NCBI GenBank assembly: GCA_008632985.1
Contig: QPGO01000050.1
Location: 62,001-126,000, forward strand
Length of the DNA: 64,000 nt
DNA from: Psammoneis japonica
Taxonomy: Eukaryota
Reading direction: 5' to 3'
This document shows, one piece after another, positions 1 to 59,189 of the stretch; the first letter of the stretch is position 1; each line of letters opens with the position of its first letter. The notes under the pieces were generated by a model. It was not told the DNA's origin. It searched no databases and saw nothing but the letters and a program-made list of their open reading frames with translations. A program made the translations under genes and the position numbers.

Positions 1-59
1 TGCACTGTCACAAGCTCCCAAGAGGCAGCTGAATTGACAAGCCACCAACTTGCAGAGTG

Positions 60-6300: not shown

Positions 6301-6309
6301 TGACACGTC

Positions 6310-17372: not shown

Positions 17373-18437
<1,065 letters not shown>

Positions 18438-25590: not shown

Positions 25591-25895
25591 GTCGTTTTTT
25601 GTGTTTTTTTTTGCATTGGCGATCGGAGCGACCGCAGAAAAAAGTCGAAGTTCGCGCGGGGGCACCTGCGCGCAAGGCATAATACGTCACGAAGGGTGGG
25701 TGGGTTCGTTCGTCGTGCGTGCCGCGCGCGCGCGCGAGGTCCCGCACAACAACGAACCGATAGCCGAAAAGCTGGAAGCTGGAACAGTGCCGGTGATCGG
25801 TGATGGTGATGATGATGATTCCTCATCACCGCGGCCAACAAAGAAGCACTCTGTGTATGTAATTGAATGCATTCAATTATACTGTGAGCGCGATA

Positions 25896-30815: not shown

Positions 30816-30954
30816 CGGGAACTACATAAAACGTTTGAGCTGAGCTTCAACACCAACAGCGCTTGCTAGTATCTATAAAAAGGGAGCTATTCTTAGTCAG
30901 CAGCACAGATAGCAGTAAAATACGAGAAAGAACAATGAAAGTCATTAGGCAAAC

Positions 30955-34553: not shown

Positions 34554-34859
34554 GATGGACTGTGAACTGACGAGCAATTCAGAAATTGTGAGAGCACTCG
34601 AACGAGAAGAGATTCTGTCTGCAATGGAGGTGCCGTGGTACAAAGCACGTAGAAATCTACGTGGCGTCAGCCGTTATCGCGTTGGAGTGATGTTCAGAGA
34701 AAGTTTCGCGAAAGTTAGTTAGTACGGAGCAGCTGAAGCTAGCTCGCAGTGGCATTTCGGCGCAGTTGATGAATCTATCGATCTTAGTTGGTCGTGCTTT
34801 TCTGCTCATTCCAGAATAATTCGCTCGCTCGCTCGTCGTTCCTGGTTGATGCTTGATGC

Positions 34860-36470: not shown

Positions 36471-36479
36471 CTGGGCCTT

Positions 36480-37930: not shown

Positions 37931-39670
37931 AATTTTTGGAAAGTCTTGCTGTCACCCGCACACATTTCCCAAAAATGCGTTTTTCCTGAAAATCATTGTT
38001 TTTTGGGAAACACGACTCACCACTTTCCCAAAATTGTGCGTTTCTTTGGAAAAACAAAATTTTTGGAAAGTCTTGCTGTCGCCCGCACACATTTCCCAAA
38101 ACTGCGTTTTTCCTGAAAGTCATTGTTTTTTGGGAAACACGACTCACCACTTTCCCAAAATTGTGTGTTTTTTGGGAAACACGACTCACCACTTTCCCAA
38201 AATTGTGTGTTTCTTTGGAAAAACGAAATTTTTGGAAAGTCTTGCTGTCGCCCGCACACATTTCCCAAAACTGCATTTTTCCTGAAAATCATTGTTTTTT
38301 GGGAAACACGACTCACCACTTTCACAAAATTGTGTGTTTCTTTGGAAAAACGATTTTTTGGAAAGTCTTGCTGTCGCCCACACACATTTCCCAAAACTGC
38401 GTTTTTCCTGAAAATCACTTGTTTTTTGGGAAACACGACTCACCACTTTCACAAAATTGCGCGCTTCTTTGGAAAAACGATTTTTTTGGAAAGTCTTGCT
38501 GTTGCCCGCACACATTTCCCAAAGCTGCGTTTTTCCTGAAAATCATTGTTTTTTGGGAAACACGACTCACCACTTTCCCAAAATCATGTGTTTCTTTGGA
38601 AAAACGATTTTTTTGGAAAGTCTTGCTGTCACCCGCACATGTTTCCCAAAGCTGCGTTTTTCCTGAAAATCATTGTTTTTTGGGAAACACGACTCACCAC
38701 TTTCACAAAATTGTGCGTTTCTTTGGAAAAACGATTTTTTTGGCAAGTCTTGCTGTCGCCCACACACATTTCCCAAAACTGCGTTTTTCCTAAAAATCAT
38801 TGTTTTTTTGGGAAACACGACTCGCCACTTTCCCAAAATCATGTGTTTCTTTGGAAAAACGATTTTTTTGGAAAGTCTTGCTGTCGCCCGCACATGTTTC
38901 CCAAAACTGCGTTTTTCCTGAAAATCATTGTTTTTTGGGAAACACGACTCGCCACTTTCCCAAAATTGTGTGTTTCTTTGGAAAAACGATTTTTTTGGAA
39001 AGTCTTGCTGTCGCCCGCACACATTTCCCAAAACTGCGTTTTTCCTGAAGACCACTGTTTTTTGGGAAACACGACTCACCACTTTCACAAAATTGTGCGT
39101 TTCTTTGGAAAAACGACTTTTTTGGAAAGTCTTGCTGTTGCCCACACACATTTCCCAAAACTGCATTTTTCCTGAAAATCATTGTTTTTTGGGAAACATG
39201 ACCCACCACTTTCCCAAAATCATGTGTTTCTTTGGAAAAACGATTTTTTTGGAAAGTCTTGCTGTTGCCCGCACATGTTTCCCAAAACTGCGTTTTTCCT
39301 GAAAACCATTGTTTTTTGGGAAACACGACTCACCACTTTCACAAAATCGTGTGTTTCTTTGGAAAAACGATTTTTTTGGAAAGTCTTGCTGTTGCCTGCA
39401 CACATTTCCCAAAGCTGCGTTTTTCCTGAAAATCACTGTTTTTTGGGAAACACGACTCACCACTTTCCCAAAATTGTGCGTTTCTTTGGAAAAATGATTT
39501 TTTTGGAAAGTCTTGCTGTCGCCCGCACATGTTTCCCAAAACTGCGTTTTTCCTGAAAATCATTGTTTTTTGGGAAACACGACTCACCACTTTCCCAAAA
39601 TCATGTGTTTCTTTGGAAAAATAAAATTTTTGGAAAGTCTTGCTGTCACCCGCACATGTTTCCCGAAAAG
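37931..39670. repeat. 127-bp tandem satellite, about 13.5 units
   Basis: ttttggaaagtcttgctgt recurs at about 37934, 38061, 38230, 38356, 38484, 38611 and on to 39628. One unit has an internal duplication of about 42 bp. Confidence 0.97.
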
Positions 39671-40189
39671 AACAACTTTCAAAATCTCGGTTGCTTTGCG
39701 CGAATGCACACACCAGCCCATCCGCACAAAATCAATCGCTGCGCACAGCACAGCTTCTGGCACTTTTCCAACGACGAGGTCAGAACTCAAAAACCATCAA
39801 TGGCGAAAATGGTGCTCGTCTCTGCGATGCTCGTTTCAAAGATGATCGGCTCGGCGCAGCCAAACAGCCCCTGTCCCATGACTGACATCTGCAACATGTG
39901 GCGCTGTGGTGAAAAAAGTCAGCACACTGAGTTGCAGCTTTGCGTCTTGTGGTGCAGTGTCGCGCTTTGATGTTTTTGGGGGTGTTGCCACACTGCCTGC
40001 CATTGTCTCACTCACAGTCGTTTGTTTCGTGTCATGTTCCAGAGCAAGGCATTGACGTCACATTGTCCACAGCGTTGAAGCCTCACGATTGATGTGGGTT
40101 GAGTTGTGGATTGTGGGGGGCAAACCAAGCAAAAGCAGCTGATCATTTGGGGACGCTGCAAGTGCTGCTTCGCATTGTTTGTCCATGAT

Positions 40190-40640
40190 GGATCAACTTG
40201 ATGCTCAACAAAAGCACCTGGAGCGACTTTGGAGTGTCGTTGGGCGTCTGACTCATTTGGCGACGCATCCTCGCACGGCATGGCGTCAATCTTGCATCTC
40301 ATTCTTCGTTGTTGATTGTTGGTTGTTGGCCGCGGGGTTGTGCACGACTGCTCAACTTGATGCTGCACTCAACAAAAGCACTTGGAATGACTGGCGTGCA
40401 ACAATTGCAGAGCACCATTGCGCGTTGGTTTGTTTTGTGATGTGTCCTTGCACGGCATGGCGTCAATCTTGTGTCTCATTGTTGCTTGTTGGTTGTTGGC
40501 CGCGCGTCGTGCACGACTGCTCAACTTGATGCTGCGCTCAACAAAAGCACTTGGAACGACTTGTGTGCAGCAATTGCAGAGCACTGTTGCGTGTTGGGTC
40601 ATTTTGTGGAAGTGTCCTTGCACAGCAGGGCATCAATCTC
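40190..40640. repeat. Tandem repeat of about 160-170 bp, about 2.7 copies
   Basis: tcaacttgatgct...caacaaaagcac occurs at about 40193, 40352 and 40521. Confidence 0.85.
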
Positions 40641-40988
40641 GTCTGGAGATTTGAGACAGAAGCAAGCGGCTGGCTCACCACACCAGTCAGTGGTGAGCAC
40701 ATGCAATGAGTTCAAGGGTGCAAAGCCCTTCTAAACCAACAGCATGAGCATTCTAAAAGCACAGCTGTGTTGTTCAGTGGTGAATTTTGTTTAAAACTGG
40801 ACGTGGAGGGGTCACATCCGTGCCCACTCCGTGCTTCATGCATGCCAATGCATGCAGGATGCCACGATGCTGCATCGACAAGTAACCCGGAAAGCAACCG
40901 AGAAATGCGAAAGGCACAAAGTCCATTCGAAGATGTCGCTTTCGGCCCGTTCACTTTCTACGTGGCCTGGTGCATCCCAAATCTGTGT

Positions 40989-41740
40989 GGAGCAGAACGC
41001 AATTTAAGGCCCGGCCTGAATTAAGGCCCTTGTGCCATCAGGCTCAAATCATGGATTCGAGGTGCGAGCTCCACAAAAACATCACGAGAACAGTGCTCGA
41101 CGAATGGTCAGCGGCCGTTTCCACCTGCAGTGCAGCTGCAAAAAAAATGACCATGCCACCACAAATGGAGGTCCAAACGAACAACACTGCACCAATCCTC
41201 ACCACATTGATGCACAAATGGATCCTGAGCAGCTTCGTCGCTGCAGTCAATGGATCCATTGACTTGCTCCTCATGGCTCTCCTCTGTTTCTCTGGTGCCT
41301 CTCATTGAACTCTTCTTGCTTTTGAAAATTACAACTGGTTTCTCCTTGTTGCACTGACCTTCACAAAGAAAGATGACACAGTCAACAAACATGATGGAGC
41401 ACATTCTTCCGTCTTCGGAGGCTTCTTCGGCGGCGCCATGGTGCATCATTTGTGTCGCATCGATGCGATGTGGGATCCCACGTAGGACGCAGCACTAATT
41501 CTACGCATGTGACGTGGAGGGCCTTAAATCACGACCATCCCATCATCCTCGCTCTTTGGACATTTTGGTTCGTGCGACAAAACTCATCAACTGTGCAGAT
41601 TTGAGAAAGTGGAACAATTTTTTTTCTGACAAGTTCAACGAGATCTTTCACATGAACACATGAAAGTGCGAAATGCACGCGCATCATGTCATCTTCATAG
41701 ATGGAGTTCTTAGCCGGGCCTTAAATTGCGCTCCACTCTA
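40989..41740. mobile_element. Non-autonomous TIR element of about 750 bp
   Basis: cgcaatttaaggcccggc (40998-41015) and its reverse complement (41713-41730), extendable outward to AGAGTAGAR once TA mutations are reverted. The internal motif ttaaggccc is repeated. Confidence 0.7.
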
Positions 41741-41949
41741 GATTCAGCACATTTTGCCCTGCAGAACAGTTTTTGGGAGTGTTCTGTGGCTCGCGGCTCA
41801 CAACAACACGCAAAATGACACGGACGACGGCGTTTCACCGATTTGAAAAATGCGATCGTCTCTGAGGTTGGAATCGTGCTAACCTTGGTGTCGCCCCACC
41901 GCGCCGGTGCTTGCTTTCCGTTCATCCAACTTTGTTGATGCCAGCAGTC

Positions 41950-44900
41950 AACTTTGCGAAACTTCTTGAAACTGTTGCACAAAACAACATGGCGTCAACG
42001 ACACGTGACAACACCACCGCCGCCCATTGCTGCAATGCCCCCATTGTTCCAGAGAAAAAGGAGAATGACGTCAAGGGAGCGGGAGAAGCGATTGACACAT
42101 TTTCGACATGCCGGCAGTCTGCATGTGCCCACGGCATTGCCTCAGAGTCTTTTGGCTGCAAACGCATCGACCACAAAGAACTTTGTCGTAAAGACAACAC
42201 AAGTGATGACACTGTAAAAGAAGCGAAGAAACCAGCGGCCTCTACAGATCACAAGCAAAGCAACATGTTTGAGATTCTGGACAGTCGTGATGACAAGGAA
42301 CCATCAAAAGATGCCGCAGCGCCTCCCAAAGACACCGCACCATCTCTCTTCAGCAAATCCGAGGAGGGCGGGCGACGACTCTAGCACTCCCGAGCTTCGC
42401 AATGTCATGTTTGATGAGATTCCTTCTCACACATGTCCTTCGTTTGAGTCAGCGTTTCTGGTTGCTGCGTCTGACAAAGTTTGCCAAGAACAAGGTGCGC
42501 AAGGGTTCTCCTGTGTTTGTCTTCCACTGTTTTGTTGATGCTTGCTTTAACTTCAAATTTCTGTTTGCCATTGTGATGGACCTTGTCTCGGCTGCAATTA
42601 GAGGGTGCAGCCTTGTGGCCACCTGTTGCCAGGCACCAACGCATCTTTTGCTGGCTGTTGCTGCTGCCAGGCACCGACGCATCTTTCATGATCAACGATG
42701 TGTCAATGTTCTGACGGACCTCTGCATTGCACAAGTGACATTGAATTTGTGGAAGAAACCGAGGGCATGTGGATTTGTGGAGTTGGTGAATGTGGAGCTT
42801 GCACCTGCATCTCAAAGCCCGAGCCATGGAAAAGACAATCTGGAATGACAGTTGAACGCACGCGTGCCAACAACAAGACAGGTTACACCCGTTTTACTCA
42901 CAAGACCGAGTCTCTTTGCCCCAGCCTCCATGAAAACAAACAGAATTGACACAGCAACCCGGGCCTGTCACAACTTTTGCCATGCCACTGCAGGATCAAG
43001 ATCATCACGAGCCTGTGCCACTCTGACGGAATTGCCACCGAATGAGCACATTGCGGTCGAGACCATTGTCACTCTGTGGATGTTGTCTCGGATGTGAGCG
43101 GGGGACAACAGAAATGCAGGCTTTTAGCCATCGCATGTCTGTGCAAATGGTTCACAGAAGTGACCAGCACTGCAACGGCAGTGGCCATGACGTGCGGCAT
43201 GTCACTCCTGTCGGATGACTTGATGAAGCTTGTGCTGAGCGCGAACGCATTCTTGGCAAAATCTGTCCCATGACGGGCGCCACGGCCATCCCGCTAGACC
43301 TGCATGGCACCACCAACGTCTCTCCCAAGACAGTGGTGTACGGACCGCTGCGGACTTTGACATTTGACGACGAAGTTCACGGCAGTCCCATTGAATCGTT
43401 TGGTGCATCCGAGCAAGATCACAATGCTGCAGCAACCTTCTTCGGGAGGCGTGCCTCGTTCATGCTGACGAGCCTTTGCTGGCACCCGAACGAGAGGAAG
43501 CGCAATTGTGTCTGCGTTCCTTCAGGCATGGGTGCATGGACCATGCTTTCATTGACGAATGGCCACAATGTGCGAAAAATCATGCAGACTCCTTTGTCTT
43601 CCCTGCATCCACCGCCAGAGAGGGGTTGGGAGGAGGTGTCGCATGATGAAATCGAGCCAACGAAATCTCTGAAACGAAGCACCCACGGCCACCACGTGTT
43701 TGCCTTTCGGTGGTTGACCTGCGCTTGGAATCCAGATCAAGATGATCCTGCTGCATGTTGCGTGGGTGACGATTTTCACTTTTCCTGTGGATGTGAAGTG
43801 AATTCCTTCGAATCAACGGTGTCCAGCCTCAACCTGTCACTGAAGCATGACTGGCGGTGTCCATCTTTTTGTGTCTCCCACGTCAAGACGTCAACTCCAT
43901 TCAGTGTTCCCATTGATGGCTTTCATGGATGCTCCGCGAAGCACTCAACACGGATGCCCGGCATCAACATGCATGAGGTGCGTTTCAATCCCAATGGCAC
44001 GTTGCAAAACTCTGGTCGAGACATTGGCCAATTCATTGGTCTCCGCGGTGAACCAGGCGGTGAGACATTGGTGGGACACTTTTGCCCATTGCCCGCCCCA
44101 ATGACGTTGGGGTGATTTGTATTTTGCACCGGACCGACGCCAAAGTGGGGCCAATCACAAAGCTTCTAGATCGTTTGCGACCTTGTGGTGAAATGTGCGT
44201 GTCTGCATTGGGTGGCTTGTGGCTCAGGTTTACGGACCAGGGCATTTTCTTTTGAGAAAAGGTGTCAAAGATTGGATTGCTGGCGGTTGGTGCAGGAATT
44301 GCTCTCATGCTGTAAATCATTCGAGTGTTCGGGCGAGGCAGAGAGCGGTTTGGCGCACATGAAGATTCTGGATGATGCATGGGACTCGGATCCCAAACAT
44401 TCCAGATGCCGCGTGTTTCTCAATCAGCCTCCGCTTGGCTGGACGGTGAGTCGGTCGCTCCAAACGGTGTTTTTGAATTCCAACATTCGCTGCTTCCTTC
44501 TCAATGCTCGCCTCTTTTTCTCTTCCTTCGGTTTCCTTGGTGATTTAGGAGGGAGTTGGGTCCGTTGAGCCCCAAGGATGTCAAGAAGCACTTGATCTGT
44601 CCTCCCGAACCTGGAGATGTCTTTGCAGTTGGCGGATCTCCCGATTTTTGAAGCAGCGGAGTTGGCGACGTCACCATGGGAACTTCCCAGGCCACACAGC
44701 CTGTCTCTGAGCAATTGAAAGCCAGCCCAGATGACACAATGTTGTCTGCTCATTCCAATCCAGAGACAGAAAATGATTGTCCCTCCGATGAAGAAACTGT
44801 TGGTCAGGAGCAGAAATTGATGAAGCAAAAAAGAGTCGGTCTCTGTGGAAGGCTGCATGCTGGTCAGACCTGCCATTGTAATCGTGAAACGAAAACGACA

Positions 44901-45140
44901 CAGTGGAGCAAGCCTTCTGGCTTTGTCGACTGTGACACTTGCAAAACGGAGCAACGTTTGGGGTGACGGGAAAGACGGGCACAAATGATGCCACTCATGC
45001 GGACTCTCTGCATGAACATTAAAAAGTCGAACAAAACTCGCAGGACTTGGGACGTGCAAGAAGAGGTGATGCTGTTGTTCAGTGCCATCCAGAAGGACAT
45101 GAGATGAGCCTTTTGCTTGTCGCAACAAGCGAAAAGGCGC
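41950..45140 (+). repeat. Unclassified repeat family, copy B (longest, CpG retained), with a decayed long coding trace
   Basis: Homologous to copies A and C. Residual ORF at 43270-44115 (281 aa). Confidence 0.8.
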
Positions 45141-45144
45141 TTCT

Positions 45145-46200
45145 TGCGACTTTCGTCCTCGTCAAGGCTTTGCAACTGCATCGGAGGATTTGGGTTGCAG
45201 TCATCTATTACGAAATGTCTTCACCGTGCAGAGTCCAGCTTTTGTTTCGCTACAACAGCAATCGGGCAATGATTGCTTTTCCACCGTCACGTCCGTCAAT
45301 TCCGTGACACAAGACGAAACCAACAACATTGAAAACAATGGTGAAAATTCTTCTTCCTCGAACAGTGGACTCTCGACAGGAGTGATTATTGCCATTGTCT
45401 TGGGCACCGCGATTGTGTGTTGCCTCTTTGCCTTGGGATGTCGTTGTGCCAGAAGGACGACTCGACCACAAAACTGTTTCAAAAAGCACGGGTCCCAACA
45501 ACAACACGTCTCTTGCCGTCAATGCATCCATGGGTTCGTCATCGAATGCTGCTGCATCCAAGAATGGGAAATTGGACAGTTCCTTTTGGACTCCACTGAA
45601 AAAGTCAAAACAACCACAACGACGACAAGCACCACCCAGTTCGGCTCGATCCTCCAATCTGTCCTGCGTGGAGGACGGTCAATCCAGTCCCAAGGGTCAA
45701 GTCAGCAGCTGTTCGCATCGACAACGAACCAAATCTAGTGGTGACTCGTCATGTGACGATGGATCGTATCTGGCAAACAGCAGCAAGGGCGGAGGCGACT
45801 TGACACATGCCTGCTCGCTCGACGACGGCATTCAAGATGCGGCCACGTATGATCCTGGTTCCATGTCGAGTGGAACCACCATGTTGGGCACTGCATCCGG
45901 TGGTTCCTTGTCGGCACCGTCCTTTCAAGATGAACATGACATTCCACCCGGAAAGGCACAACGAGATGTCCATGCACCACCGGGTCAATTGGGAATTGTC
46001 GTCGATGCCACACTCGATGGACCCCAAGTCATGTCGCTCAAGGACGACAGTCCACTGGTGGGTGTGATTTGGGCAGATGACTTGATTGTTGCCATTGATG
46101 ATGTTGACACACGCAACATGACGGCTGGTTCGATTGGACAATCAATGGCAAACGCATGAGTCAAAGACGGAAATTGACATTGTGGAGTGATGATGAATGA
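45145..46200 (+). pseudogene. 5'-truncated, mutated copy of the PDZ membrane protein gene
   Basis: SYSYRQR->SCSHRQR, TYAYS->THACS and RDVY->RDVH relative to copy 1. Confidence 0.85.
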
Positions 46201-46872
46201 CAATGGGAGGAGCAACGAATCCAGCAGACATAGAAGTCGTGTGGTCCACATTCTTGGTTCTTTGGAATTGTGGATTGCGGTGCCGACAATAGGATGCTGG
46301 AATGTGTGCTGTGGGTTTGTGCACATGCCTCCAGGCGGATGTGCTGAGTCTGCGTTTGCAATGCAGGCGGCATCGACTGGAACAGAGCCGACTCTGGGGA
46401 ATGCAGAGACTGTGAAGACGACACCGTCACAAGCACCAGTCTGCTGGCTCCACTCTGTCTCGGAAGAGATGGCCACACAAAGTGGTGTTAGGATTGGCAG
46501 TCGAAGCGGCAAACTCTACGGTAGATGAGCAAACGACAATTGCACTGTTGTGCCACACTTTCTGCTCGAATCTAACTAATGACATACATCCCTTCGATGC
46601 CAATCGAGACTCACTAACGTCTGCCTCCCAACTGACATTCTAATGCTTCCAAGAACTTAAAAAGCACCGATTCGAAAGGCAAGCCTGATTTGTTTCAATG
46701 TCGTGACCCAACTTCCAATGCAGGTGCCAGAATCTCAACAACAACATTCTTGGTTTCTTTGCGGGGTTTCACAAACGGCACAGAATCTTGAAGAACGTTC
46801 ATCACATAAATCGACGCATCTAAAACTCTCGTCACCCAATGTTTGGCTTTCCACTCCATTGTAGAGCGACAG

Positions 46873-47718
46873 TCAGACAAAATTGGGTTCCGAAAGAGCG
46901 ACACCTTCAAAAAGCAGGGTCGCCCGAGTCTTTGCAATCTCCAAAACTTTCTTCCCCCAATGTCCAACACTCGATTTGATCTCAGAGAGATGGTTAGACA
47001 AGATTGGGTTCCGAAACGGCAAAAAATTGTCGCATTCCTGCAGAACGCGAGCCTGAGTCTGGATTTGCGCGACAACGTCGTTCGAGAATACGTCTGCAAG
47101 TTTCCGCCAAAGCTGGAACACTTCCGACTTGGATTCCACAAACGTGCTGTAGGTGTCTGACAAGAAGGCCAACTGGATCTCCAAAAATGTCGTGAACGCA
47201 TCTTGGAACGGGACTCCCTTGGTCTGAATCGTGCTGTCGGGAGCAGTGTTGAGAAAAAGTTGCTGGAGGCTGCCGTTGGAGTCGCCATTGTTGTCCGGCA
47301 CAAAACAGTCATAGACACAATGCTCGTTGGCACCATCTTCTGGTGCAATCGTGGGCGTGGTGTTGCGCAGGAGGTCTTGGACGCGACTCGGAGACTTGTC
47401 GCCGTCGTCAAAATGAGCGCAAAAGCTGGAAGTGATGATGGCGTTTTCGAAGGGAACAGTGCCGGGAGCAGCGTTGCTGATGATGTCATGGCAGCAGCTG
47501 GGGGTGGTGTCGACATCAGAGCAACTGTTGTTGTCCAAAAACTTGCGCAGGAGCTCTTGGTTGAACGTGGCGACACTGTCGGTCGCCGTGGCGGCCTTGA
47601 TCGACAAGGCGCTAACGGAGCGCTTTGCCGCATCCACAAACAAGGCAGAGAGAGGGCTGATGATGGCACCAGCGCTCATGGCGGCAATGATGGCAAGGAC
47701 AAAGTTCATGATTTTCAT
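46873..47718 (-). pseudogene. Mutated but open-frame copy of the secreted hypothetical protein
   Basis: YYH->CCH, EYCVYDY->EHCVYDC and TIVP->TIAP relative to 33698-34553. Confidence 0.75.
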
Positions 47719-48039
47719 GATGGACTGTGAACTGACGAGCAATTCAGAAATTGTGAGAGCACTCGAACGAGAAGAGATTCTGTCTGCAATGGAGGCGCCG
47801 TGGCACAAGACACGTGGAAATCTACGCGGCGTGGGCCGTTTCTCCGTTGCATTGAAGTTCAGAGAAAGTTTCGCGAAAGTTAGGCCCCTGCTGCCGTACG
47901 GCAGCTAGCTTGAAGCTGGCTGCGGCAGTGGGCATTTCGGCGCAGTTGATGAATCTATCGATCTTAGTTGGTCGTGCTTTTCTGCTCATTCCAGAACAAT
48001 TCGCTCGCTCGCTCGTCGTTCCTGGTTGATGCTTGATGC

Positions 48040-50290
48040 AGGATGCATTCAGCAGCCAACAGTCAACTGCTGCTGTTGCATGAAAACAAAATGGCATCAA
48101 TGACACATGATGGCACCACCATGGCAAGCAGCTGCAGTGCCCCCATGTTGTTCCACAGAAAAAGGAGGATGACTTCGAGGGGTGGGACGAGAAAAGAGAG
48201 GTTGGCACATTTTCGACGTGCGTGTGTGTGCCCACGGCATTGCCTCAGAGTCTTTTGGCCAAAGAACACATGCGCATCGAGAACACTGCAGAAAAAGCAA
48301 AGAAACAACCAGCGGCTTCTGCAGGTCACAAGCAAACAACACGCTGTTGGTCCATCGAAAGATGCCGCAGCACCTCCCAAAGACACTCCCAAGCTTGGCA
48401 ATGGCGTGTTTGACAAAATTCCTTCTCATGCATTTCCTGCATTTGAGCCAGTGCTTCTGGCCAGTGTTGCTGCACTGACTGCATCAGGAGAAAGTGCCGA
48501 AGTGCCTGACAAAGTTGGCCAAGAACAAGGTGCGCAAGGACTCTCCTTTGTTTGTCTTGCACTGTTTTGTTGATGCTTGCGTCAAGTTTGAACTTCTGCT
48601 TGCCATCATGACAGGTCTTGTCTCAGCCACAATTGGAGAGTGTGGCCTTGCTGTTGCCAGGCTCCAACGCATCTTTTGCTGGCCATCACTTTTCCTGGGC
48701 ACCCACACATCTTTCGTGATTGACGATGTGCCAATTTTGTGATGGGCCCACATCATGCAAGTGACGTTGAATTTGTAGAAGAAGAAATCAAGGGCATGTG
48801 GGTTTGTGAAGACTTTGTGCCTTGCTCTGGAATGACAGGTTGTGCCTGTTTTGCTCAAGACCGAGTCTGTTTGCCCCAGCATCCATGAGAAAAAAACAGA
48901 GCTGATGCAGCAACCTGGGCCTGTCTTAACTTTGGCCATGCCACTGAACATCACAAGCTTGCACCACACTTGCAGAGCTGCTGCCAAACAAGTGTGCAGA
49001 GATGGGTTTGCATGAGGTGTTGTGTGATGAAATTGAGCCAATGAAATCTCAGAAACAAAGCACCCAGCATGTTTGCACTTTGGTTGTTGACCCACACTTG
49101 GAATCCAGATCAAGATGATCCTGCTGCTTGGCACACTGGGCAGAGCAAGCTTGGGCAACTTTGTGTCTCACATGTCAAGACATCAACTGTGCTTCCATGA
49201 CTGTCAATGACACCCCCATTGATGGCTTTCATCAGCACTCTGTGAAGTGCTTAACATGGGCACCAATCATGACATTGGTGTGCACGAGGTGTGCTTTAAT
49301 CTCAACAATGCATTGCAAAACTCTGGTCCAGAGATGCTGGGCAATTTGTTCAAGACAGTGGGACACTGTTTTTGCCCATCACCCTGCCCCAATGACGTTG
49401 AGGCAATGACATTTTGTGCCAGACACACCAAAGGGGGACCAACCCCAAAGCTTTTAGATCATTGATGACCTGGTGGTGCAATGCACTTGTCTGCATTGGA
49501 TGTCTTGTGGCTCAGGTTTGCAGATCAGGGCATTTTCTTTTGAGAAAAGGTGTCAATGATTGAATTGCCAGCATGTGGTGCAGGAATTGCTCCCATGCTG
49601 CAAATCATTTGAGTGTTTGGGGAGCATGGACGAAGCCACCCTGAGCACAGTGGAGATGGGGCTCGCCAAGGCAGAGAGTGATTTGGCCTGCATTGAGATT
49701 CTGGATGATGTGTGGGACTTGGATCCCAAACATTTCAGATGCCACATCTTTTCTCAATCAGCCCCCGCTTGGCCGGACGGCAAGTCTGTTGCTCCAAATG
49801 CTGTCACTCCAATGTCAGGTGCTTCCTTTCTCACTGCTTGCCTCTCTTTCTCTTTCTTCAGTGCTTTTTGTGGTTTGGGAGGGAGCCAGGTTTGTTGAGC
49901 CCAAGGACATCAAGAAGCACTTGATCTGTCATCCCAAACCTGGAGACATTGTTGCAATTGGTGGAACTCCAATTTTCAAAGCAACGGCATTGGCAAAGTC
50001 ACAGTGGAAACTGCCCTTGCCATGCAGCCTGTCTCTGAGCAAGTCATGCAAATGCAGGTGACACATCCACTCCTTCCAATCCAGAGACAGAAAATGATTG
50101 TCCTTTGATGAAGAACTGTTCATCCAGAGCAGAAGTTGACAAAAAGCAAAAAAGCATTGGTCTCTGCGGAAGGCTGCAGTTGATGTCCATGCTGGTCAGA
50201 CCTGCCACTGTGGTTGTGAAACAAGAGCAACACAGCAGAGCAAGCCTTCTGACTTCTGACTTTGTCGAGTCATTTGAGTCCATCATTTCA
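48040..50290 (+). repeat. Unclassified repeat family, copy C (internally deleted, TA- and CG-depleted)
   Basis: Matches copy A up to about 48995, then about 43620-44930 of copy B. Confidence 0.85.
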
Positions 50291-50299
50291 TGCCAATGG

Positions 50300-51040
50300 C
50301 AACAATGGATTTTGCACTCGCTTCACTAAATTCAGCAGCATCGAGTTGCAGGAACTGAACAATGGCTCACCGCAAGGCAGCTGTTGTGATTTTACATGTG
50401 TCCAGTGCATCTTGTTTGCTTTGCCACAGAAAACGTGAATTGTCATTTTGCCTCCTTCAGCACAAGCCGCAGAAGAAAAGACAAAATCAATGCCACTGTC
50501 CCCATCACGAGTTCCTGATGAGCAAAGCTGTGGTCCCCTTTTCTTGAAGGAGCTGTTCTTTGCCCTTTTTGACAAGCAAGACATGTTCCGGCTTTTGGAC
50601 TGGCGAATGACAACTGCCAATCATCCCACCCATTGCAATGATTGCCCAAAGAAGAAGGAGGACACAAACAAACATGAGTGGCAAATGGCTGGCATGACAG
50701 AGCACCAAACAAGGATCCGTCACAAGAAGGAAGAAGCTTGCAATGAAAACACCACATGTCTGTGATGCAATGCAACTGATCGGGATTGCACTTCCTTGAG
50801 AAATTTGAGGCTCTCATGCTCATCGTTCCGAACTAACTTGGATGGCTCGCACTGCGTGTCATTGTTGCCGAGCCCAATTGGAGATGGCGTTCATGATGCA
50901 TCTGCTGCTCGCCACTCGTCCTTGCAACAAAAGATGCACAGACACATCTTGTTTGTGACAATGCATCTGAGACACAGTGCAACCATCTGCAATGATGAAC
51001 CACGACAGGACCAAAAGTGCACAACCATTTGCTCTAGAGT
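50300..51040 (+). pseudogene. Possible TpA-mutated host gene fragment of unknown function
   Basis: Coding-like frames 50448-50765 and 50796-51200, convergent with the PRCC-like gene and nearly TA-free. Confidence 0.3.
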
Positions 51041-51085
51041 TTTCCCAAGCATGTCAACATTGCAATCTCACATTGTGTCACATGT

Positions 51086-51946
51086 CTGCCACCCACATTT
51101 TTGTTTTGGATTGGCACGCCGATTTTGCTTGTCACTGACTGGTCCGGCTCCTTGTTGCGATCGTTGCAATTCCAAATTGACGGCACTCTGCACCAACTGA
51201 TTGATTTGATGTTTGGACCGGTGTTTGGACGTGACTTGATTTTGCAACTCATTGCTTCCCATGGATGAATGGTGCATTTTGACAGCCGCCTTTTGGATGA
51301 CGTGTGACTGGTGTTGCTCGTGTTGTTGCTCGTGTTGTTGGGGAGCCACGCAGCCTGAGCAATCTTGGGCTTGAATGGAAACAATGTTGCTGCCAGCATT
51401 GTCGTCCACAACTGCATCAAATTGTCCACTTCTCAAGGCTTGTTCCAACTGTCTTTTGCTCTTTTTTTTGGAGCGCTGTTGTGGTTGTTGAGCAGCATTG
51501 CCAAATTCTTGTGGATGCTGATGCATGGTGGAAGGTGCCTCGTTTAGAGAATGGCCCATGGGGGATGACGCTGCAGCAGCAGCAGCAGTGACCACTTGCG
51601 GTTGTTGTGTTGTTGCAGGAGCAGCATTTAAGTGATGAGGAGCAATGGCTGCAATGGGAGCAGCAGTGGCACTTGTCGTTGTTGGCAAAGTTTCCAAAGG
51701 AGCCGGATTTGTTCTTGTTGCACTTGCTGGCCCTGCCGCGCCAATGGCAACGTTTGTCTGTTCGTTTGATTCTTCTGACGAAACACGATCCTCCGTGGCA
51801 GCGTGAACATCAACAACGTCCTGGCCCTTTTTGGAAGTAGCAGCAGTTGTTGTTGTGGATGTCAGTGACAAACCCATGGCTGCATTTGGTTTCTGGTCCA
51901 ATGTCGAAGCATCTTCCTCATGCGCGGCAGTGCTTGCAAAGGGCAT
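51086..51946 (-). pseudogene. PRCC-like (proline-rich protein PRCC, C-terminal domain) gene, TpA-mutated
   Basis: The C-terminus KHRSKHQINQL...NRRANPKQKCGW resembles the PRCC KHQI..L...KYG(F/W)* ending. The presumed TAG stop now reads CAG at 51086-51088. Confidence 0.7.
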
Positions 51947-52324
51947 GGCCGGCCTCCAGCGGGAGTTGTTGATTGAAGCTCGGATAAAAGGGAGGAAATA
52001 CCACTGTCCTTCTTGACACTGCTTGCATTGGTGGATTTGGCGGATTCTTTCTTTTTGCCGATGCAGAAAAATTGAAAATCCGAGAATGCCGAATCCAAAA
52101 TCGCTGTCTGTAAAGCATGTTTGTCTGCTCTTTGTCACCTGGTCGCGCAACAAATCGCGCCAAAACGATTGGGCGCGCCATTTTTTTGCAGAGCTCGAAA
52201 AACCTCTCGTTCAAAATTCGGCATCTCGATCGGACGCACACACAACAACGAGCCAACCACTAAAAAACCCACGAAGTGCATCAAGTACGGCACCCTAAAA
52301 CCTAAGTAAGGCTTTGAGGAGAGG

Positions 52325-55300
52325 ATGGAAGACAAAACCGTTGCTTCGTTCTCACAAAAGCCACCGTTAGGTGCATTACCACCATCGTTGTTGCAGCAAT
52401 CGATTGCGGTGGCTGCCCACGGTGTCACTCCTTCTCCGGCATTGCTTCAGACGGCTGCACCTCCCTCCGTGAAGGACAGCAACAGCGGAATCCAGAGCTC
52501 AGATCAAAGGCGCTTGTTTGATACGATGAGTCCAAAGGGTAAGTGTCACATCATACAGTATTTCTGCCAGGCTTACGTTGCTCACACGTTTCATTCCCAT
52601 CTTTCGCCTTCTGACGTAGGCGACGCTGAGAATATGCCCCGTCGATCTGGGCGTAAGAAGACATCCACCCTCATTCATGTCAACGGCCAAGCGGTTCTAA
52701 AACAGAACAATTACGTCCTGAAAGGCTTGACTTACAAGTATGGTGCAGTCGATGATGATGAAAACAAAATACCGTCGGCCAGAACGGCTGCGGCTGATGC
52801 TAAACCGCCCAGGAAGAAGGCCCCACCTCGTCCTCCGAATCCATCGCAGCTCCAACGTACTGAGCACAACTCGCGTGTTCTAGAAGAGGTAAAAAAGAAG
52901 GAAGGTTTACGAAACGGGTATTTGGCGTCCAACCTCTCTACGCTGGAACCCTTCTTGGATGAGAAAGTCAAAAAGAAGCTTCAGGAGATCCCTCCGTCGA
53001 AAGCTATTGCCCATACCATTGTTCAACCGCCCGATTCAATCACAGCAGAGATGCGAGACTACCAGCTGGAAGGTCTTCAGTGGATGTCAAATATGCATAA
53101 GGCCAATCTCGGAATGATATTGGGCGACGAGATGGGTCTGGTAAGAAACGGTCCCGCAGAGATGGTTTGCTTCTTAAAATATTTGTATCTAATGTTTTCG
53201 TCTTGTTCTTCTTACGTAACTACCGCAAAGGGGAAAACGCTGCAGACCATTTCTCTGTTTTGTCATCTCAAGGAAACACAGGGCACGACAGGGCCATCCC
53301 TGGTGATTGCACCGTTGTCCGTCTTATACTCGTGGTGCAGTAAGTTAAAGATGAATGTGCGCTTCTCAGAATCCATGTTTCGTCACTCACTTATGCGCAT
53401 CTATTCGTCGTATCCAGGCGAATTGGACAAGTGGGCTCCTTCACTCAAGTACATGCGTTTCCATAGCTCAAGCCAAGATGAAAGAGAGGCGCAACGCGTT
53501 GCTCTCATGGAAAAGGGAACTTTATATGACGTCGTTGTGACCACGTACGAAATGGCAAAGTCTCCCATGCTCCGTAACCTCTGGTCTAGGCAGTGCTTCA
53601 ACTGTTTGGTTCTAGACGAGGGACACAGAATCAAGGATGTGGACTCTTTGATTTCGCAGGGAGTACGGTTGATTCGCTGTGAAACCAAGCTCATTCTGAC
53701 AGGAACTCCCCTACAGAATAACCTTGTCGAACTTTGGGCTCTTCTGAATTTTTTGTACCCAACCGTCTTTGTCGAATCTGAGCCTTTCTCTCAAGCCTTT
53801 AACTTGACTGAGAATCGAATTGACCCGACACCCTCCGTAAAGCACATGCTCTTTTGGGACTATTTATGATCCGTCGATTAAAATCGGAAGTGGAGAAGCT
53901 CATGCCGAAAAAGATAGAGACCAAGGTGATTTGCCCGCTGAGTCAAACACAAATCTTTTGGTACGTTTTAATTCGATTTCTGTGCGTAAACCGTGGTTTT
54001 TTTCTGTGTTCACGCATTCTTCTTCTTGTGGCTTTTAGGTACAAGGCGCTCCTTATGGAGGATATCAATCTCCTGGCGAAAGCATCAGAGTCGGGCGCTG
54101 AAGATGCGCCCAAAACGTCATACCAACGTCTCAACAACCTTGTTATGCAGCTAAGGAAATGCTGTCTGCACCCCTTTCTGTTTGCGGGCGCCGAGACAAA
54201 TCTTGAAGAAACTACATGCAACGAATTAGTTGCGGCTTCTGGAAAGCTTGCTGTTTTGGATAAACTCCTGCGAAGCCTTTATACCAAGGGTCACCGCGTT
54301 GTGCTTTTCTCGCAGTTCACCTCTGTTTTGGATATTCTGGAGGATTACTGTACGATGCGGGGCTGGAAGTACTGTAGGTTTGACGGCTCAACCGCACGCG
54401 CCAAGAGGAACCACATTGTAAATCAATTCAATGCGCCTGGTTCCAACGTGTTCATTTTCCTGATGAGCACGAGAAGCGGAGGTATCGGCCTAAACCTTCA
54501 AACGGCTGACACGTGCATCCTCTTTGATCAAGACTACAACCCACAGCCTGATCTCCAAGCTATGGCACGAGTTCACAGGATCGGTCAGAAGAAAACTGTT
54601 CATGTAAGCCCGTTGTTTGAGTTGCCAATTTCGAGAGCCACAACATTCCTCACTATTCTTTCTTCGTTATTCGTTTCCCAAGGTGTATCGCCTTGTATGC
54701 GGCGGGACAGTTGAGGAGAGAATCCTGGAGCGTGCCCAAAAGAAGCTTTATCTTGACCAGATGGTGAACGTGAACTCTTGCGAGGAAGCAGAAGACGACG
54801 GCTCTTCTCAGGAAGTTTCGAAACGTGACCTTTTGTCCACTCTCACCTTCGGTTGCGACGCCGTATTTGGAGAGGACAGCGAGAAGCAAAATGAACTTCC
54901 CACCGATGAAGATATCGAGGTCATTACGGATCGCACTCGTACAGAGGACACGTCGCAGGGGCAGCTCAAAGGTGGAATATCGAGCAAGGCATCTGATTTC
55001 GAGGCTAGCCGAGAACTAACGGCAACGACCCAACTTGGTGGCATTGACTTCAAGAGCCTCCGTGACGCACACAAGAAAAGATCGTCGCAAACCATAGCTG
55101 ATCAGTGGAAGAGCTTCCAGCATGAGAAACGTAAGCGGAAGAGCCGCGTGATCCTTGTAGACTCTAACGGTTCCGGATATGGGTCGGCTGTTCCTGTGCT
55201 TGCTGCAAACAACTACGATCTCGAGGCGGGGGAAAGCTCTGTTTTCCAAAGAGAGCTTGGTGGGAGCAAGGGAAATTACGGGCAGGTTAAGAAAAAGGTC

Positions 55301-56282
55301 AAAAGGTCTGGTATCGATTTCCAGGAGCAAGACTTGTAAGTACTTTCTGCTTTCCGAATCATCAGAAATGACGTCTTGCTTGCTTACTTTACATGCTCTC
55401 TTGCCTTTGTTTAGTTGTCAAGTGTGTGGAGACGGAGGTCTCGTCGTCTGTTGCCCATTCTGCCCAGTCGCGGTGCATTTACAATGCGCTGGTATCACTC
55501 ATGCGAAGCATTTCTCGACTTGCAGCCATCACCGATGCTCTTCCTGCGACAAGAATTTGTCCGCAGCTGGAGGCATCCTGTTTCCGTGCCAGAGTTGCCC
55601 AGTTTCGTTTTGCGAGGACTGCCTTCCTACCCGAGCACCAGGGGCTCGAATCATAGGCCGTTGCGAACGCTTCGAGAAGCTCGGTTTCGTTAGCAAGCAC
55701 TTTGCTTACATCAATTGTTCGGCACAGTGCGAGGAATACGCCAAAAAGGAATTCAATTGGACACCGCCTAATGACAAGCCGCAACCTTGTCCACCGGCAT
55801 TGGACATATCGCATGCATTTGGAGCCACAATCGATGAAACATTTGAGGCTCCGAAAACGGATGAACTTCCCCGGCTCCGTGCTCGAAAAGTGACCAACTA
55901 CGCCGAATTGAAGAACGATACTCCGTCTCCTCCAAACAAGAAACAAGCGACGGCCGCAGCTCGTTTCCTTTCCAATTTACACCATGCGGAGAACCGTGAA
56001 AAAGTGGCCAACCACGCCAAACTAACCGTTAACGGTTCGTGTCCTCCAGATCAGAAACAGGTCACTGTCGCAGCAGTCATCCCCGCCAAGTTGCAGCGTG
56101 CAGAAAATCCCGAGGTAATCGAAATTCAGGATAGTCCAGAAGTATCAAAAATGGACGCCAAGTTGCAGCGTGCGGAAAATCCCGAGGTAATCGAAATTCA
56201 GGATAGTCCAGAAGTGTCAAAGATGGAAAGCAATGCGTCTCCTCTAGCCCCCCAAAGCTCAGTCGGGTGGCGATTATTGTGA
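52325..56282 (+). CDS. SNF2/ISWI-like chromatin remodelling ATPase with C-terminal PHD-type zinc fingers, multi-exon
   Basis: MRDYQLEGLQWM, ILGDEMGL/GKT, LVLDEGH, LTGTPLQNN, MQLRKCCLHP, STRSGGIGLNLQTAD, QAMARVHRIGQ and CQVCGDGG...CSHHRC...CPVSFCEDC. There is a 1-bp frameshift at about 53828. Confidence 0.93.
56085..56228 (+). repeat. In-frame 72-bp tandem duplication in the helicase C-terminus
   Basis: AKLQRAENPEVIEIQDSPEVSKM occurs twice. Confidence 0.9.
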
Positions 56283-56629
56283 TCGAGGACATTCCAGTCA
56301 ACTAATTTTTGTATGGTGAATCAGCCAAGAGTTGGAAACGCAAGAGCACAACCTGTTGTCTTAAAACATCGACTATAAATTTTGTGTACGGTATTCGCCA
56401 TCTTCGTTGTACCTCAGTCCTCTGTGTGGCTATTCTAGCTAGAGAGAAAAGTAGTCACGCATGTACTCTAGGTAAATCTAATCTGGTTTCGACGATAGCG
56501 AGGAGGGCAATACTAGTACAACTCAAGTGGAAAATGAACGGTTGTAAAGAAGGGAAAGGAGCGAGAAATCGAAGAGAACAACGGATACTACGAGGAAATC
56601 ACAAGGATCACCAAGTCCTATGAAAAGAT

Positions 56630-57540
56630 GCATGGCCCTGTTGGTCAAGCCTAGAATCATCTTAAAAATCAAAGCTCGAAAAGGCAGCCAATTCTGTGAA
56701 GCAAGCTAGAAACGAAGCTAATCGACACTTTGATGAAATCGGACGTGACATGGATGAAGCAGATCAGAAGATCAAGTCTCTACTGAACGAAGTCGAAGGC
56801 CTACAGTTTGCAAGGAAATTTCTGGCCCACTGGATTCGTGCTCCCGAAGGTGTTTGGAAAACTACAGGCGCATACTGCTGATGCTCAAGCTATGTCATGT
56901 TTGCATAATCTCATCACGTGGGTTCTGAAGAGGCCATGCGGGTACGGATCTCACGGCAACAAGCTGGGTACAAGTACTGAAGCAGTCCAGCTGTCTTATC
57001 AAAGATACGTTTGCCAAGAAATGGTAGAGCCGCCCTTGCTTACTGAAGACAGGAAGTTTTCATTGCGGATTTACGTTGTATACTTTTCGGAGTCAGCATC
57101 AGGTGACGACGGATGTTGATATCTTTTTGTCTCGGACTAGGGTTTAGCTAAACTTGCTTCTGTTCCCTTCGAAAGTGGACAGGATAAAAATGACGATCGA
57201 CTTCACATGACGAATTCTGCTCGAGAGATGCCATGTCGCAGCAAGACTTAGTGTATCTCGAAGAGACTCGGAGAGAAGCTTGACAAAGCAGGCTTCACTT
57301 ACAGGGACCACACGTGCAAATCGATAGAAGCAGTCGTAGGAAGCTACGTAAGAATTCAATGGTGAGTATTCTATCGGTCTCGACTTGCCACTTTTGGAAT
57401 CCCAAAACTATTGGGCTTTGACTACGTGCTAGACGCTATAACGCCACACTGTTTCTGTTCGAGGTCAATCACGTCCCCGGCCTGGAAGCAAGGGTTCTGT
57501 GCTACCGACAGACTTGGTGTGGATGCATGGGACAGCTTAG
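56630..57540 (+). pseudogene. Tubulin-tyrosine ligase-like (TTL/TTLL) pseudogene fragment
   Basis: YVCQEMVEPPLLTEDRKFSLRIYVVY, GLAKLASVPF, HMTNS, LLGFDYVLD and FEVNHVPGL, with in-frame stops at 57117 and 57138 plus frameshifts. Confidence 0.75.
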
Positions 57541-57580
57541 GGATGCAACGACCAGAACACGTCGGACATACGTCGCTGCA

Positions 57581-58492
57581 TCAACCAATATGAGTAACAA
57601 CATCTTCTTTCGTCACAGCGCAATAGTCATCAGACAAATCCCAATAGTCAATATGCTTCCCGCTTTCGAACCCTTTCTCCAATATCAGCTTTACCAACCT
57701 CCTGGCTGTATCCTCCGGCTTCACGAGTGTGCCTTCTTCGTGCGAAGTGCGGAAGAATTTTCGGAGTTTCTCATCCAGATCATCGCATTCAGCAAGCGCC
57801 GTCGTCATCTTTGTCTCACACGCTCCGGGAGCGTAGTTGAGGAATTCGACATTATATTTACTGCAATCTTCTTGTGCTAGCGCCTGGTGAAACATATCTC
57901 TCGCCGCCTTACCAGCACAATAAATTGACATGGTTGGAAACGGCTCTATCGCACACAGGGAAGATATGTTTACAACGACACAATGCGGAGGCGACGACGG
58001 TGGGGTACCGGTTGACTTCTTGAACTTTATGGTCTCCTGAACGAAACGAACGCTAAGCCACAAACTGGATGTCACATTGAAATCAATAGCCTCCTGGAAA
58101 TCTTTTACAGACTTAAGTTCCAAGCAGGAGCCCAGATGCCCAAGCGTCCCTGCGTTGTTTATCAGTATGACACGATCAAATCGACTCATTGAAGAAGATT
58201 CCTCTTCCAGAAGTCTATCAATTTCGTCATCCAATTTATCCAGCTTGGAAAGGTCGATTGCATTTACCCCAACTTCGAGTGTCTGATGAGCTCGTTTTTC
58301 TTCCAGGACCAGTCGTTCAGTCTCAAACAAATCGTCCTGTGACCGCGCCACAAGAACCACTCGAATGACGGATATTTCATCAGAAGCATTTTTGACAAAA
58401 GAAACTGCGATGGCGCGTCCAATACCTCTTGAGGCCCCAGTGACAACAACTAGCAGTGATGACATAATGCGAAACGCAACGGCGTCATTCAT
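57581..58492 (-). CDS. SPR: Sepiapterin reductase-like short-chain dehydrogenase/reductase
   Basis: TGASRGIG, LINNAGTLG, VNISSL, YCAGKAARDM, LNYAPG and FESGKHIDYWD. The start may be the second Met (about 58465). Confidence 0.88.
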   Translation of the reverse strand: MNDAVAFRIMSSLLVVVTGASRGIGRAIAVSFVKNASDEISVIRVVLVARSQDDLFETERLVLEEKRAHQTLEVGVNAIDLSKLDKLDDEIDRLLEEESSSMSRFDRVILINNAGTLGHLGSCLELKSVKDFQEAIDFNVTSSLWLSVRFVQETIKFKKSTGTPPSSPPHCVVVNISSLCAIEPFPTMSIYCAGKAARDMFHQALAQEDCSKYNVEFLNYAPGACETKMTTALAECDDLDEKLRKFFRTSHEEGTLVKPEDTARRLVKLILEKGFESGKHIDYWDLSDDYCAVTKEDVVTHIG

Positions 58493-59189
58493 TTACTGTA
58501 CTTCTACAACGAGATGATAACTCCAATGTGAATTTTAGTACCATGCGAATGTGTTTTTTTCGGCGAACGAGGTTCAAGGTGACGGACGGACCACACTAAA
58601 AGCAAGACAGCACATACAGCTGCCCATTATCCCCGCTCCCCGAATCGTGTGCATCGCGCACGATGCACACCGATTCAGACCTCTCGTGCTTTTCCCCCGC
58701 CGAGCTTGAATCGGACTGACGGCATAAATCTTACAGTTAACACAGAGGTTGTTCCTCCCCGAAAGCGAAAAAGAGCCAAGTTCAACCGTTCTTATCGAAG
58801 CTGACATGTAAACATTGGGTATTTATGGCGGGAAAACTTGCGTAGCTTCTACGCGTGTGCACTGTTGGCGATGCACTCAGTACATTTCTACGTCTTTTCT
58901 ACGTGTGAAATCGCTATTTACCCGGATTTGCTTCCCTCACCCGGAAATGTTTCTACCGTAGACAGTACAACGCGGTCGGAAGTTTTCGCGCCTTGTTATC
59001 GTGTTGTTGTCGCGCACTTTCCGACAGGCAGTCAATGAAACAATTATTGGAGGACGAGATGAGCCAATCAAACCCTAGAAAAACAGCATAAAGCACGTCA
59101 AGCGTAGTAGAAGACGAGGACGTGTTGAAATTTATTAACAGAGGCCCTTGAAGAGACAAGTTTTAGCGATAAAGTAGTGCCAAAAAAGA

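Follow-up and report, generated by a model that had tools for sequence, protein, structure and literature searches.

INTRODUCTION

Hypermutation of invading DNA by A:T>G:C changes specific to TpA has been reported once before, in a 2026 preprint on the chlorarachniophyte Bigelowiella natans (Mettrop et al., bioRxiv 10.64898/2026.01.13.699255). As given in its main text, of the 231 mutations that fell in two integrated viral regions of mutation-accumulation lines, 230 were either A>G or T>C transitions, every one of them on TpA, giving TpG or CpA according to strand. The process there is episodic, appearing in some lines only. Clusters of windows poor in TpA and rich in CpA and TpG are enriched there for transposon and viral domains, an integrated giant virus has a Rho(TpA) of 0.45, and deamination to hypoxanthine by ADAT2 is proposed. 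We describe the same signature, far more advanced, in 64,000 nucleotides from Psammoneis japonica (GenBank assembly GCA_008632985.1, contig QPGO01000050.1, positions 62,001 to 126,000 of the forward strand). This whole 64-kb stretch is called the window in what follows, and the signature shapes more than half of it. A duplicated segment, hit in one copy and spared in the other, shows the change of TA to TG or CA directly and allows its dependence on flanking bases to be read.

Other processes bear on the comparison. Repeat-induced point mutation (RIP) of ascomycete fungi changes C to T at CpA, makes TpA, lowers GC content and mutates both duplicates. Adenine deaminases of the TadA/ADAT type carry an HxE-PCxxC motif and have as their natural target an A that follows U (U33-A34 of the tRNA anticodon loop). 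ADAR acts on RNA duplexes and also edits AA. DNA polymerase eta (Pol eta) makes A>G errors that favour WA (W, A or T), with TA above AA, as in antibody hypermutation; its hotspot mutagenesis (somatic hypermutation, COSMIC SBS9) includes AA and many transversions. In the passages on sequence context of the papers cited here, the A edited by ADAR is favoured in UAG (PMC2532740), the A48E editor made from TadA-8e (ABE8e) prefers YAC (PMC13109818; Y, pyrimidine), natural TadA does not edit DNA, and amphioxus ADAT2 (BjADAT2) does edit DNA, preferring GAA for A and TCG for C (PMC10354150).

RESULTS

Blocks that have lost TA

Over the whole window the observed/expected ratio (o/e) of TA is 0.31, with TG at 1.47 and CA at 1.42. 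Limits of hit and unhit blocks were set by eye from a 500-bp composition profile. The four hit blocks, 36.6 of the 64 kb (~57%), have TA o/e of 0.00–0.3 and TG+CA of 1.3–2.1; the three gene islands have TA o/e of 0.5–0.8. Borders adjoin genes, and the transition takes place within 250–1200 bp. The hypermutated DNA is local, lying in sharp repeat-derived blocks beside ordinary host genic DNA. GC content is similar in hit and unhit blocks, and TA loss is graded from block to block.

The long-term trace, clustered TpA depletion coupled to CpA and TpG enrichment, is present in the window as in the B. natans preprint, and the two cases further agree in transitions that are almost exclusively A>G or T>C, on TpA and limited to regions. 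They differ in degree: against the Rho(TpA) of 0.45 reported for the B. natans giant virus, blocks of the window reach 0.00–0.05 over kilobases.

Change of TA in a duplicate pair

A segment present twice in the window was found by self-BLAST and aligned with MAFFT (~90% identity), and every dinucleotide was scored. The first 2.7 kb of copy A (31956..36131) is unhit, with TA o/e of 0.5–0.9, and has kept its ancestral TAs; the hit block begins at ~34700. Copy B (45145..48994) is the hit copy, with TA o/e of ~0.1–0.3. Of the 131 flanked TAs in copy A, 115 were scorable, being TA, CA or TG in copy B; the remainder are mostly gaps. In copy B these 115 read CA (44), TG (40) or still TA (31), so that 84/115 ancestral TAs have changed. 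In the other direction, 31 of the 34 TAs of copy B are TA in copy A, the others being TG, AA and AG, one each. Within the lightly hit part of copy B from which the preliminary description drew its claims (46630..48060), 49 copy-A TAs gave 16 CA, 14 TG, 15 TA and 4 other.

Transversions are rare at copy-A TAs (AA 2), and the changed sites are single transitions. Per strand-site, A>G is seen at 88/262 (34%) in TA and at 15/570 in GA, 12/659 in AA and 14/693 in CA (~2%). The latter three are thus 13- to 18-fold below TA, nowhere near the comparable rates that the preliminary description had named as evidence against a TA-specific mutator. Counted from A to B, weak-to-strong transitions fall 88 times in TA context, 27 times where B has CG and 41 times at other sites; in the opposite direction the counts are 2, 24 and 26. 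In a 16-channel T>C spectrum the values are 0.51 for GTA, 0.43 for ATA, 0.23 for TTA, 0.16 for CTA and 0.01–0.09 for all others, the NTG channels including CpG decay of the other copy.

Outside TA, excess A>G is limited to RAY sites (R, purine), with 22/539 against 7/532 in reverse (p=0.007); YTY sites have none (7/572 against 10/565 in reverse). The RAY excess hints that a pyrimidine at +1 is still read where −1 is not T, and could reflect the same mutator acting weakly off target.

One 500-bp tract of the pair (33446–33945 and 46621–47117) is ~98% identical, against ~91% elsewhere, and 99 nt are at 100% identity (33447–33545 = 46622–46720). The copies may have undergone gene conversion here recently, or the segment may be under constraint. 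The lightly hit look at the start of 46630–48060 is due to it.

The pair also differs in its open reading frames (ORFs), that of copy B (46695–47808, minus strand) being 311–324 aa long and that of copy A (~33734–34510, minus strand) 256 aa. The copy-B ORF has been recoded by TA loss, Tyr becoming His or Cys, for example EYCVYDYF in A and EHCVYDCF in B.

Dependence on the base 3′ of the adenine

Each TA contains two adenines, one per strand and each with its own 3′ neighbour, and counts were strand-symmetrised. Mutated strand-sites in the A/B pair are 35/64 at TAC, 32/73 at TAT, 9/54 at TAG and 8/39 at TAA, and the four contexts are unequal (chi-squared p=2.2e-5). A +1 pyrimidine gives 67/137 and a +1 purine 17/93 (odds ratio 4.3, p=1.8e-6), so the preference for TAY over TAR that had been seen by eye is borne out. 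Grouped by both flanks, the TAs changed are 34/40 RTAY, 26/31 RTAR, 19/26 YTAY and 5/18 YTAR. The outcome tracks the flanks too: YTAY became TG at 15 sites and CA at 4, RTAR became CA at 18 and TG at 8 (p=0.0023). The earlier observation that GTAG becomes GCAG in preference to GTGG holds over the pair, 10 against 1 (n=13).

A competing-risks likelihood fit to the pair gives relative rates of TAA 1 : TAG 0.85 : TAC 3.95 : TAT 2.9, or ~3.7 for pyrimidine over purine. Equal rates are rejected (p=3.2e-6), and a model with two rates, Y and R, is as good as the full one (p=0.47). Scanning from −4 to +4 relative to the A, we find clear significance at +1 alone (p=2.2e-5) and none at −4 to −2, +2 and +4, with an uncorrected p of 0.035 at +3. 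The rate at each A varies with its own 3′ neighbour, a pyrimidine being ~4-fold favoured over a purine, with no detectable dependence on the bases 5′ of the T.

TAs that remain in hit blocks

There are 186 TAs left in the 36.6 kb of hit blocks, against 1095 in 26.2 kb of islands. TA density relative to islands is 0.33 for YTAR, 0.125 for RTAR, 0.084 for YTAY and 0.038 for RTAY (chi-squared p=9e-21). Among the ten tetranucleotide classes it falls from 0.37 (CTAA/TTAG), 0.35 (TTAA) and 0.24 (CTAG) through 0.14 (GTAA/TTAC), 0.11 (CTAC/GTAG), 0.08 (both ATAA/TTAT and ATAG/CTAT) and 0.06 (GTAC) to 0.04 (ATAC/GTAT) and finally 0 (ATAT, with none against 75 in the reference). The kinds of survivor first noticed by eye recur in these counts. 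In the lightly hit range 46630–48060, 8/15 survivors are YTAR, and in the oldest block (1–7900) all 20 surviving TAs lie within TTA or TAA, 13 of them YTAR.

A Poisson survivor model that gives each block a single ‘age’ and adds up the rates of the two strands, the tandem array described below being excluded, fits the ten classes well with TAA 1 : TAG 1.9 : TAC 4.2 : TAT 6.9. It rejects G=A (p=0.018), T=C (p=1.6e-4) and equality of all rates (p=4e-28). Equality across NTAN contexts, which the preliminary description had put up for test, is thus rejected in the direct pair (p=3.2e-6) and among survivors alike. Its finer ranking of TAG above TAA fared less evenly: the pair gives no sign of it (9/54 against 8/39, p=0.75–0.79), and the survivor model favours it weakly (1.86-fold, p=0.018). 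At +2, survivors show a 1.9-fold excess of A and have T at 0.53-fold (p=1.8e-17), with six control dinucleotides at 0.88–1.16; in the pair, 14/49 sites with A at +2 have changed against 70/181 otherwise, the same direction (p=0.32). An A at +2 probably protects.

Underlying the survivor model is the premise that NTAN tetranucleotides originally occurred in the hit blocks in the same proportions as in the genic islands. Because coding DNA avoids stop codons, TAA and TAG are depleted by about one quarter in this reference; the apparent survival of TAR would be somewhat inflated as a result, though not 3- to 5-fold.

Strands and direction

The two strands are hit independently and equally. Outcomes in copy B are balanced (44 CA, 40 TG), and along the alignment they form 43 runs, against 42.9 ± 4.6 in shuffles. 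No clustering of survivors was seen in the A/B pair. Given this lack of clustering by strand, nothing at this resolution points to processive events on single strands; the superposition of many rounds would, however, also erase any such trace.

Several lines of evidence support loss of TA over gain. Eight pairs of repeats with both members in hit blocks have CA opposite TG in 105/251 double differences, the next class being AT/GC with 20, the pattern expected if a single ancestral palindromic dinucleotide had decayed independently in each copy. Contigs of run X1, which may be the assembly's own sample, were compared with the window. In 10 of the 40 best-supported among 522 differences, the other genomic copy reads TA opposite TG or CA of the window; the reverse occurs in 0, and in 14 the other copy has CG. 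The composition of the blocks and the B. natans mutation-accumulation data (bioRxiv 10.64898/2026.01.13.699255) point the same way.

Loss of CG

CG loss is symmetric in the pair: 23 CGs of copy A are CA or TG in B, and 26 CGs of copy B are TG or CA in A. In the oldest hit DNA (1–7900, 48000–51500 and 59200–64000) both TA and CG have been lost (CG o/e 0.0–0.3). At 36500–40500, a tandem array of 127-bp units with its surroundings, TA o/e is ~0.00–0.04 and CG o/e 0.65–1.06; in the array itself the values are 0.00–0.03 and ~0.9. Since the array is TA-free and yet CG-normal, the two losses are separable. The process resembles methyl-CpG decay in that a palindromic YpR dinucleotide goes to TG or CA in silent DNA, and in the same blocks. 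It differs in target, which in methyl-CpG decay is the C of CG, and in extent, copy B having lost 84/115 TAs against 23 of ~194 CGs. Of the two, TA seems to go first and at a much higher rate than CG, which suggests that CpG decay in the hit blocks is a separate, slower process.

One sequence at two loci

A repeat that flanks both copies (34893–36131 in A, 48073–48994 in B) is TA-free in each, and was therefore hit before the duplication. The 2.7 kb beside it is TA-normal in A and has lost most of its TAs in B. In A this stretch adjoins a gene island; in B it lies between repeats (43868–44923, and 48073 onward). One sequence with two fates at two loci argues that the process is targeted to chromosomal domains and not to sequence or homology. 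We infer that the target is a chromosomal domain or chromatin state rather than sequence or repetition as such.

Word depth in X1 is ~56 over single-copy genes. Over 46476–47803, within the duplicate, it is 950–2169 (roughly 17–40×). Across this stretch and 40500–41827 the summed X1 word depth ranges over 950–2280, so that both are members of families with some tens of copies, and no Pfam domain was found in either segment.

Genes and repeats of the window

The oldest hit block (1..7900) has TA o/e of 0.00–0.09, CG o/e of 0.0–0.3 and TG+CA of ~1.9, with the 20 TAs already mentioned. It is followed by an unhit genic island of reference composition (8100..18700) with genes for an AGC-type protein kinase (12699–13934, minus strand), an H4-like histone (17376–17762, minus) and histone H3 (18015–18434, plus). 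The divergent H4-like/H3 pair lies less than 500 bp from the sharp edge of the TA-free block that begins at ~18900. Within this second hit block (18900..25400), 19000–21500 is heavily hit and 21500–25400 partly hit. The latter part (TA o/e 0.2–0.3) contains an intact-looking DDE_3 transposase ORF of 374 aa (22236–23360, plus), which may be a younger insertion still under degradation. A second unhit island (25600..34500), also of reference composition, includes the unhit portion of copy A.

The largest hit block (34700..52100) holds the 127-bp tandem array, repeat copies at 41972–43363, 43868–44923 and 49160–50255, and copy B. The array (37870–39736) has at least 14 units, is essentially TA-free and CG-normal, and carries long chance ORFs on both strands. 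Just two of its columns are CA/TG-polymorphic, and their origin from TA or from CG is ambiguous. A gene for an SNF2-family helicase with PHD-like zinc fingers downstream (52310–56279, plus), with short intron-like interruptions, begins directly at the border of this block. It belongs to the third island (52300..59000), likewise of reference composition, which also has a gene for a short-chain dehydrogenase (57584–58492, minus). The last hit block (59200..64000) has TA o/e of 0.00–0.11 and CG o/e of 0.03–0.26. A 5.7-kb X1 contig spans 59257–60400 with 6 differences and reproduces the TA-free stretch.

The best named relatives of the kinase are from Cylindrotheca, a Bacillariaceae metagenome-assembled genome, Pseudo-nitzschia and Fistulifera, at 70–78% identity, and named relatives of the dehydrogenase are likewise diatoms. 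A Pfam search of 58 stop-to-stop ORFs from hit blocks gave no match except one weak C2H2. Host-gene matches (kinase, histone, SNF2 and short-chain dehydrogenase) are thus confined to the islands; the DDE_3 ORF of the partly hit block is the exception to the lack of matches in hit blocks. When the DDE_3 and copy-B ORFs were scanned against metagenomes, neither had a relative confirmed by tblastn, and none of 373 candidates scored as an outgroup for the copy-A ORF.

As TAA and TAG vanish, only TGA stops are left, and ORFs are therefore inflated in TA-free blocks. Such blocks will mislead gene callers, and annotation of genomes that contain them must allow for inflated ORFs.

DISCUSSION

On balance we think it probable that the window records a cumulative, DNA-level hypermutation of TpA to TpG or CpA, specific to TA, limited to domains and carried out by an adenine deaminase. 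In gene-poor, repeat-derived domains, A:T would be changed to G:C at the A of 5′-TA-3′ on either strand, again and again. The enzyme would convert DNA adenine by deamination into hypoxanthine, a base read as G, strictly requiring T at −1 and favouring C or T at +1. Nucleic-acid deaminases with the TadA/APOBEC fold typically show this pattern of a strong −1 and a weaker +1 requirement. A required 5′ base, a 3′ base that is read, and independent strands are together what a base-modifying enzyme would give. That an enzyme acts here in preference to general GC-biased conversion, as the preliminary description proposed, is supported by the inequality among NTAN contexts and by the TA specificity.

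By analogy, TadA and ADAT would supply the right chemistry, A>I read as A>G. As far as its published preference goes, the TadA-8e A48E editor (YAC, PMC13109818) resembles the T-A-Y motif of the window in accepting T at −1 and C at +1; it differs in that the window rejects C at −1 (CA 14/693) and takes T at +1 as well as C.

Several points weigh against this account or its finer parts. No deaminase domain or other candidate gene is present among the ORFs of the window, so the enzyme and its identity are inferred. A>G at TAY is equivalent in sequence to T>C at RTA, and the attacked base is indistinguishable. Amphioxus ADAT2, the sole animal ADAT2 shown to edit DNA, prefers GAA and not TAY, according to the report that describes it (PMC10354150). 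It is possible that copy A is no protected locus and was inserted more recently from an unhit master, the element being in part multicopy. As to the ranking of contexts, the pair does not separate TAT from TAC (p=0.24). The orders TAT>TAC and TAG>TAA and the +2 effect would hold only as far as the island-composition assumption of the survivor model. Finally, ATAA, which had been described as becoming ACAA, gave 4 CA and 4 TG over the whole pair, though the model predicts mainly CA.

The equivalence of strands leaves room for an attack on the other base: the thymine of 5′-R-T-A-3′ would be modified in silent chromatin, for example by a TET/JBP-type dioxygenase to 5-hydroxymethyl- or 5-formyluracil, and then mispair with G at replication, giving T>C. 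5-Formyluracil mispairs with G, and the sequence data are symmetric. The strict need would then be for the base 3′ of the target, with a weaker need 5′ of it, the reverse of what is seen in known base-flipping deaminases; on this analogy we regard thymine attack as unlikely, if worth keeping in mind.

Chronic error-prone repair synthesis of the Pol eta type, with its WA hotspots, in methylated heterochromatin seems to us quite improbable. It shares with the window mutation of A:T pairs in TA context, the hit blocks lose CpG too, and traffic of base-excision repair is plausible there. However, AA is spared (12/659 against 88/262 at TA), transversions at TA are few, 115/131 copy-A TAs being TA, CA or TG, and CpG loss is the same in the hit and the spared copy.

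Editing of repeat double-stranded RNA by an ADAR-type enzyme, fixed in DNA through reverse transcription, would likewise give A>G with a preferred 5′ U or T, and we give it very little credence. UAG, the context reported as favoured by ADAR (PMC2532740), is disfavoured here, +1 G being poor (9/54). AA is at background (12/659), and the sequences hit include an in-place duplicate as well as a tandem array. Within one copy the two DNA strands have changed equally (44 against 40), a result that copying of a single edited RNA strand would not yield.

Modified bases cause motif-specific consensus errors, and long-read base-calling errors at modified TpA could have been carried into the assembly. 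We hold such an artefact to be about as improbable as the RNA route. The X1 contigs, again with the proviso that X1 may be the assembly's own sample, reproduce TA-free stretches (59257–60400). Strand-specific miscalls would give mixtures of TA, TG, CA and CG and not a flank-dependent choice together with CG depletion, and ordinary substitutions and indels, too, separate copy A from copy B.

That the blocks are foreign or viral DNA which always avoided TA, through selection or donor composition, is scarcely credible: they have no recognisable host genes, yet copy B duplicates the TA-normal copy A, hit copies are discordant for CA and TG, and TA loss is graded among blocks. GC-biased gene conversion or a general weak-to-strong bias, which would favour every such change whatever its neighbours and with which the net direction of change at TA agrees, can be practically dismissed, because weak-to-strong changes outside TA are 41 against 26 in reverse, GC content is similar in hit and unhit blocks, and CG is lost, not gained. 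We dismiss as readily the opposite direction, in which the TAs found in copy A and in genic DNA arose by RIP-like C>T at CpA. A two-copy alignment alone does not polarise changes, but the genic islands have ordinary TA o/e (0.5–0.8) and the blocks go down to 0.00, hit copies have CA and TG at the same dinucleotide (105/251), the other genomic copies favour ancestral TA by 10 to 0 among the best-supported 40 of 522 differences, and the B. natans lines, as the preprint describes them, show TA>TG/CA as it happens.

The TpA-specific hypermutation proposed here is like RIP in degrading repeated or mobile DNA by dinucleotide-specific transitions that leave a compositional scar. Unlike RIP, it destroys TpA, leaves GC content unchanged and has spared copy A, where 1–3 of the 34 TAs of B are changed, against 84/115 of A's in B. 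A duplicate hit in one copy and spared in the other points to domain targeting over homology and separates the process from RIP. The phenomenon of TpA>TpG/CpA was already described in B. natans; the T-A-Y motif, the flank rule and the evidence on domain targeting are what the window adds. The main text of the B. natans preprint does not contain the words trinucleotide, tetranucleotide, flank or context, though such data may stand in its Table S2, and full-text literature searches for the signature in diatoms found nothing relevant.

The flank rule gives a biochemical profile that a candidate enzyme should match: T is obligatory at −1, Y is favoured ~4-fold at +1, A at +2 is probably protective, and the strands are acted on independently and without clustering. 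This profile speaks against mechanisms like those of ADAR, Pol eta, GC-biased conversion and RIP, and it differs from that of the one animal ADAT2 known to edit DNA. Among marine primary producers, diatoms are a major group. B. natans is a chlorarachniophyte, and the genes of the window are closest to those of pennate diatoms; with the same signature in both, the process may be widespread in the SAR (Stramenopiles, Alveolata, Rhizaria) supergroup. More speculatively, diatoms and chlorarachniophytes might share an ancient, chromatin-directed ‘reverse RIP’ defence built on a natural DNA adenine deaminase of specificity T-A-Y, with A disfavoured at +2. We offer this as a tentative possibility. 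If it were true, the T-A-Y motif would identify the enzyme, which might serve as a natural A-to-G editor of double-stranded DNA, and the shared defence would run far above the rate of methyl-CpG decay, clearing silenced mobile DNA of TpA and hence of Tyr codons, TATA elements and two of the three stops.

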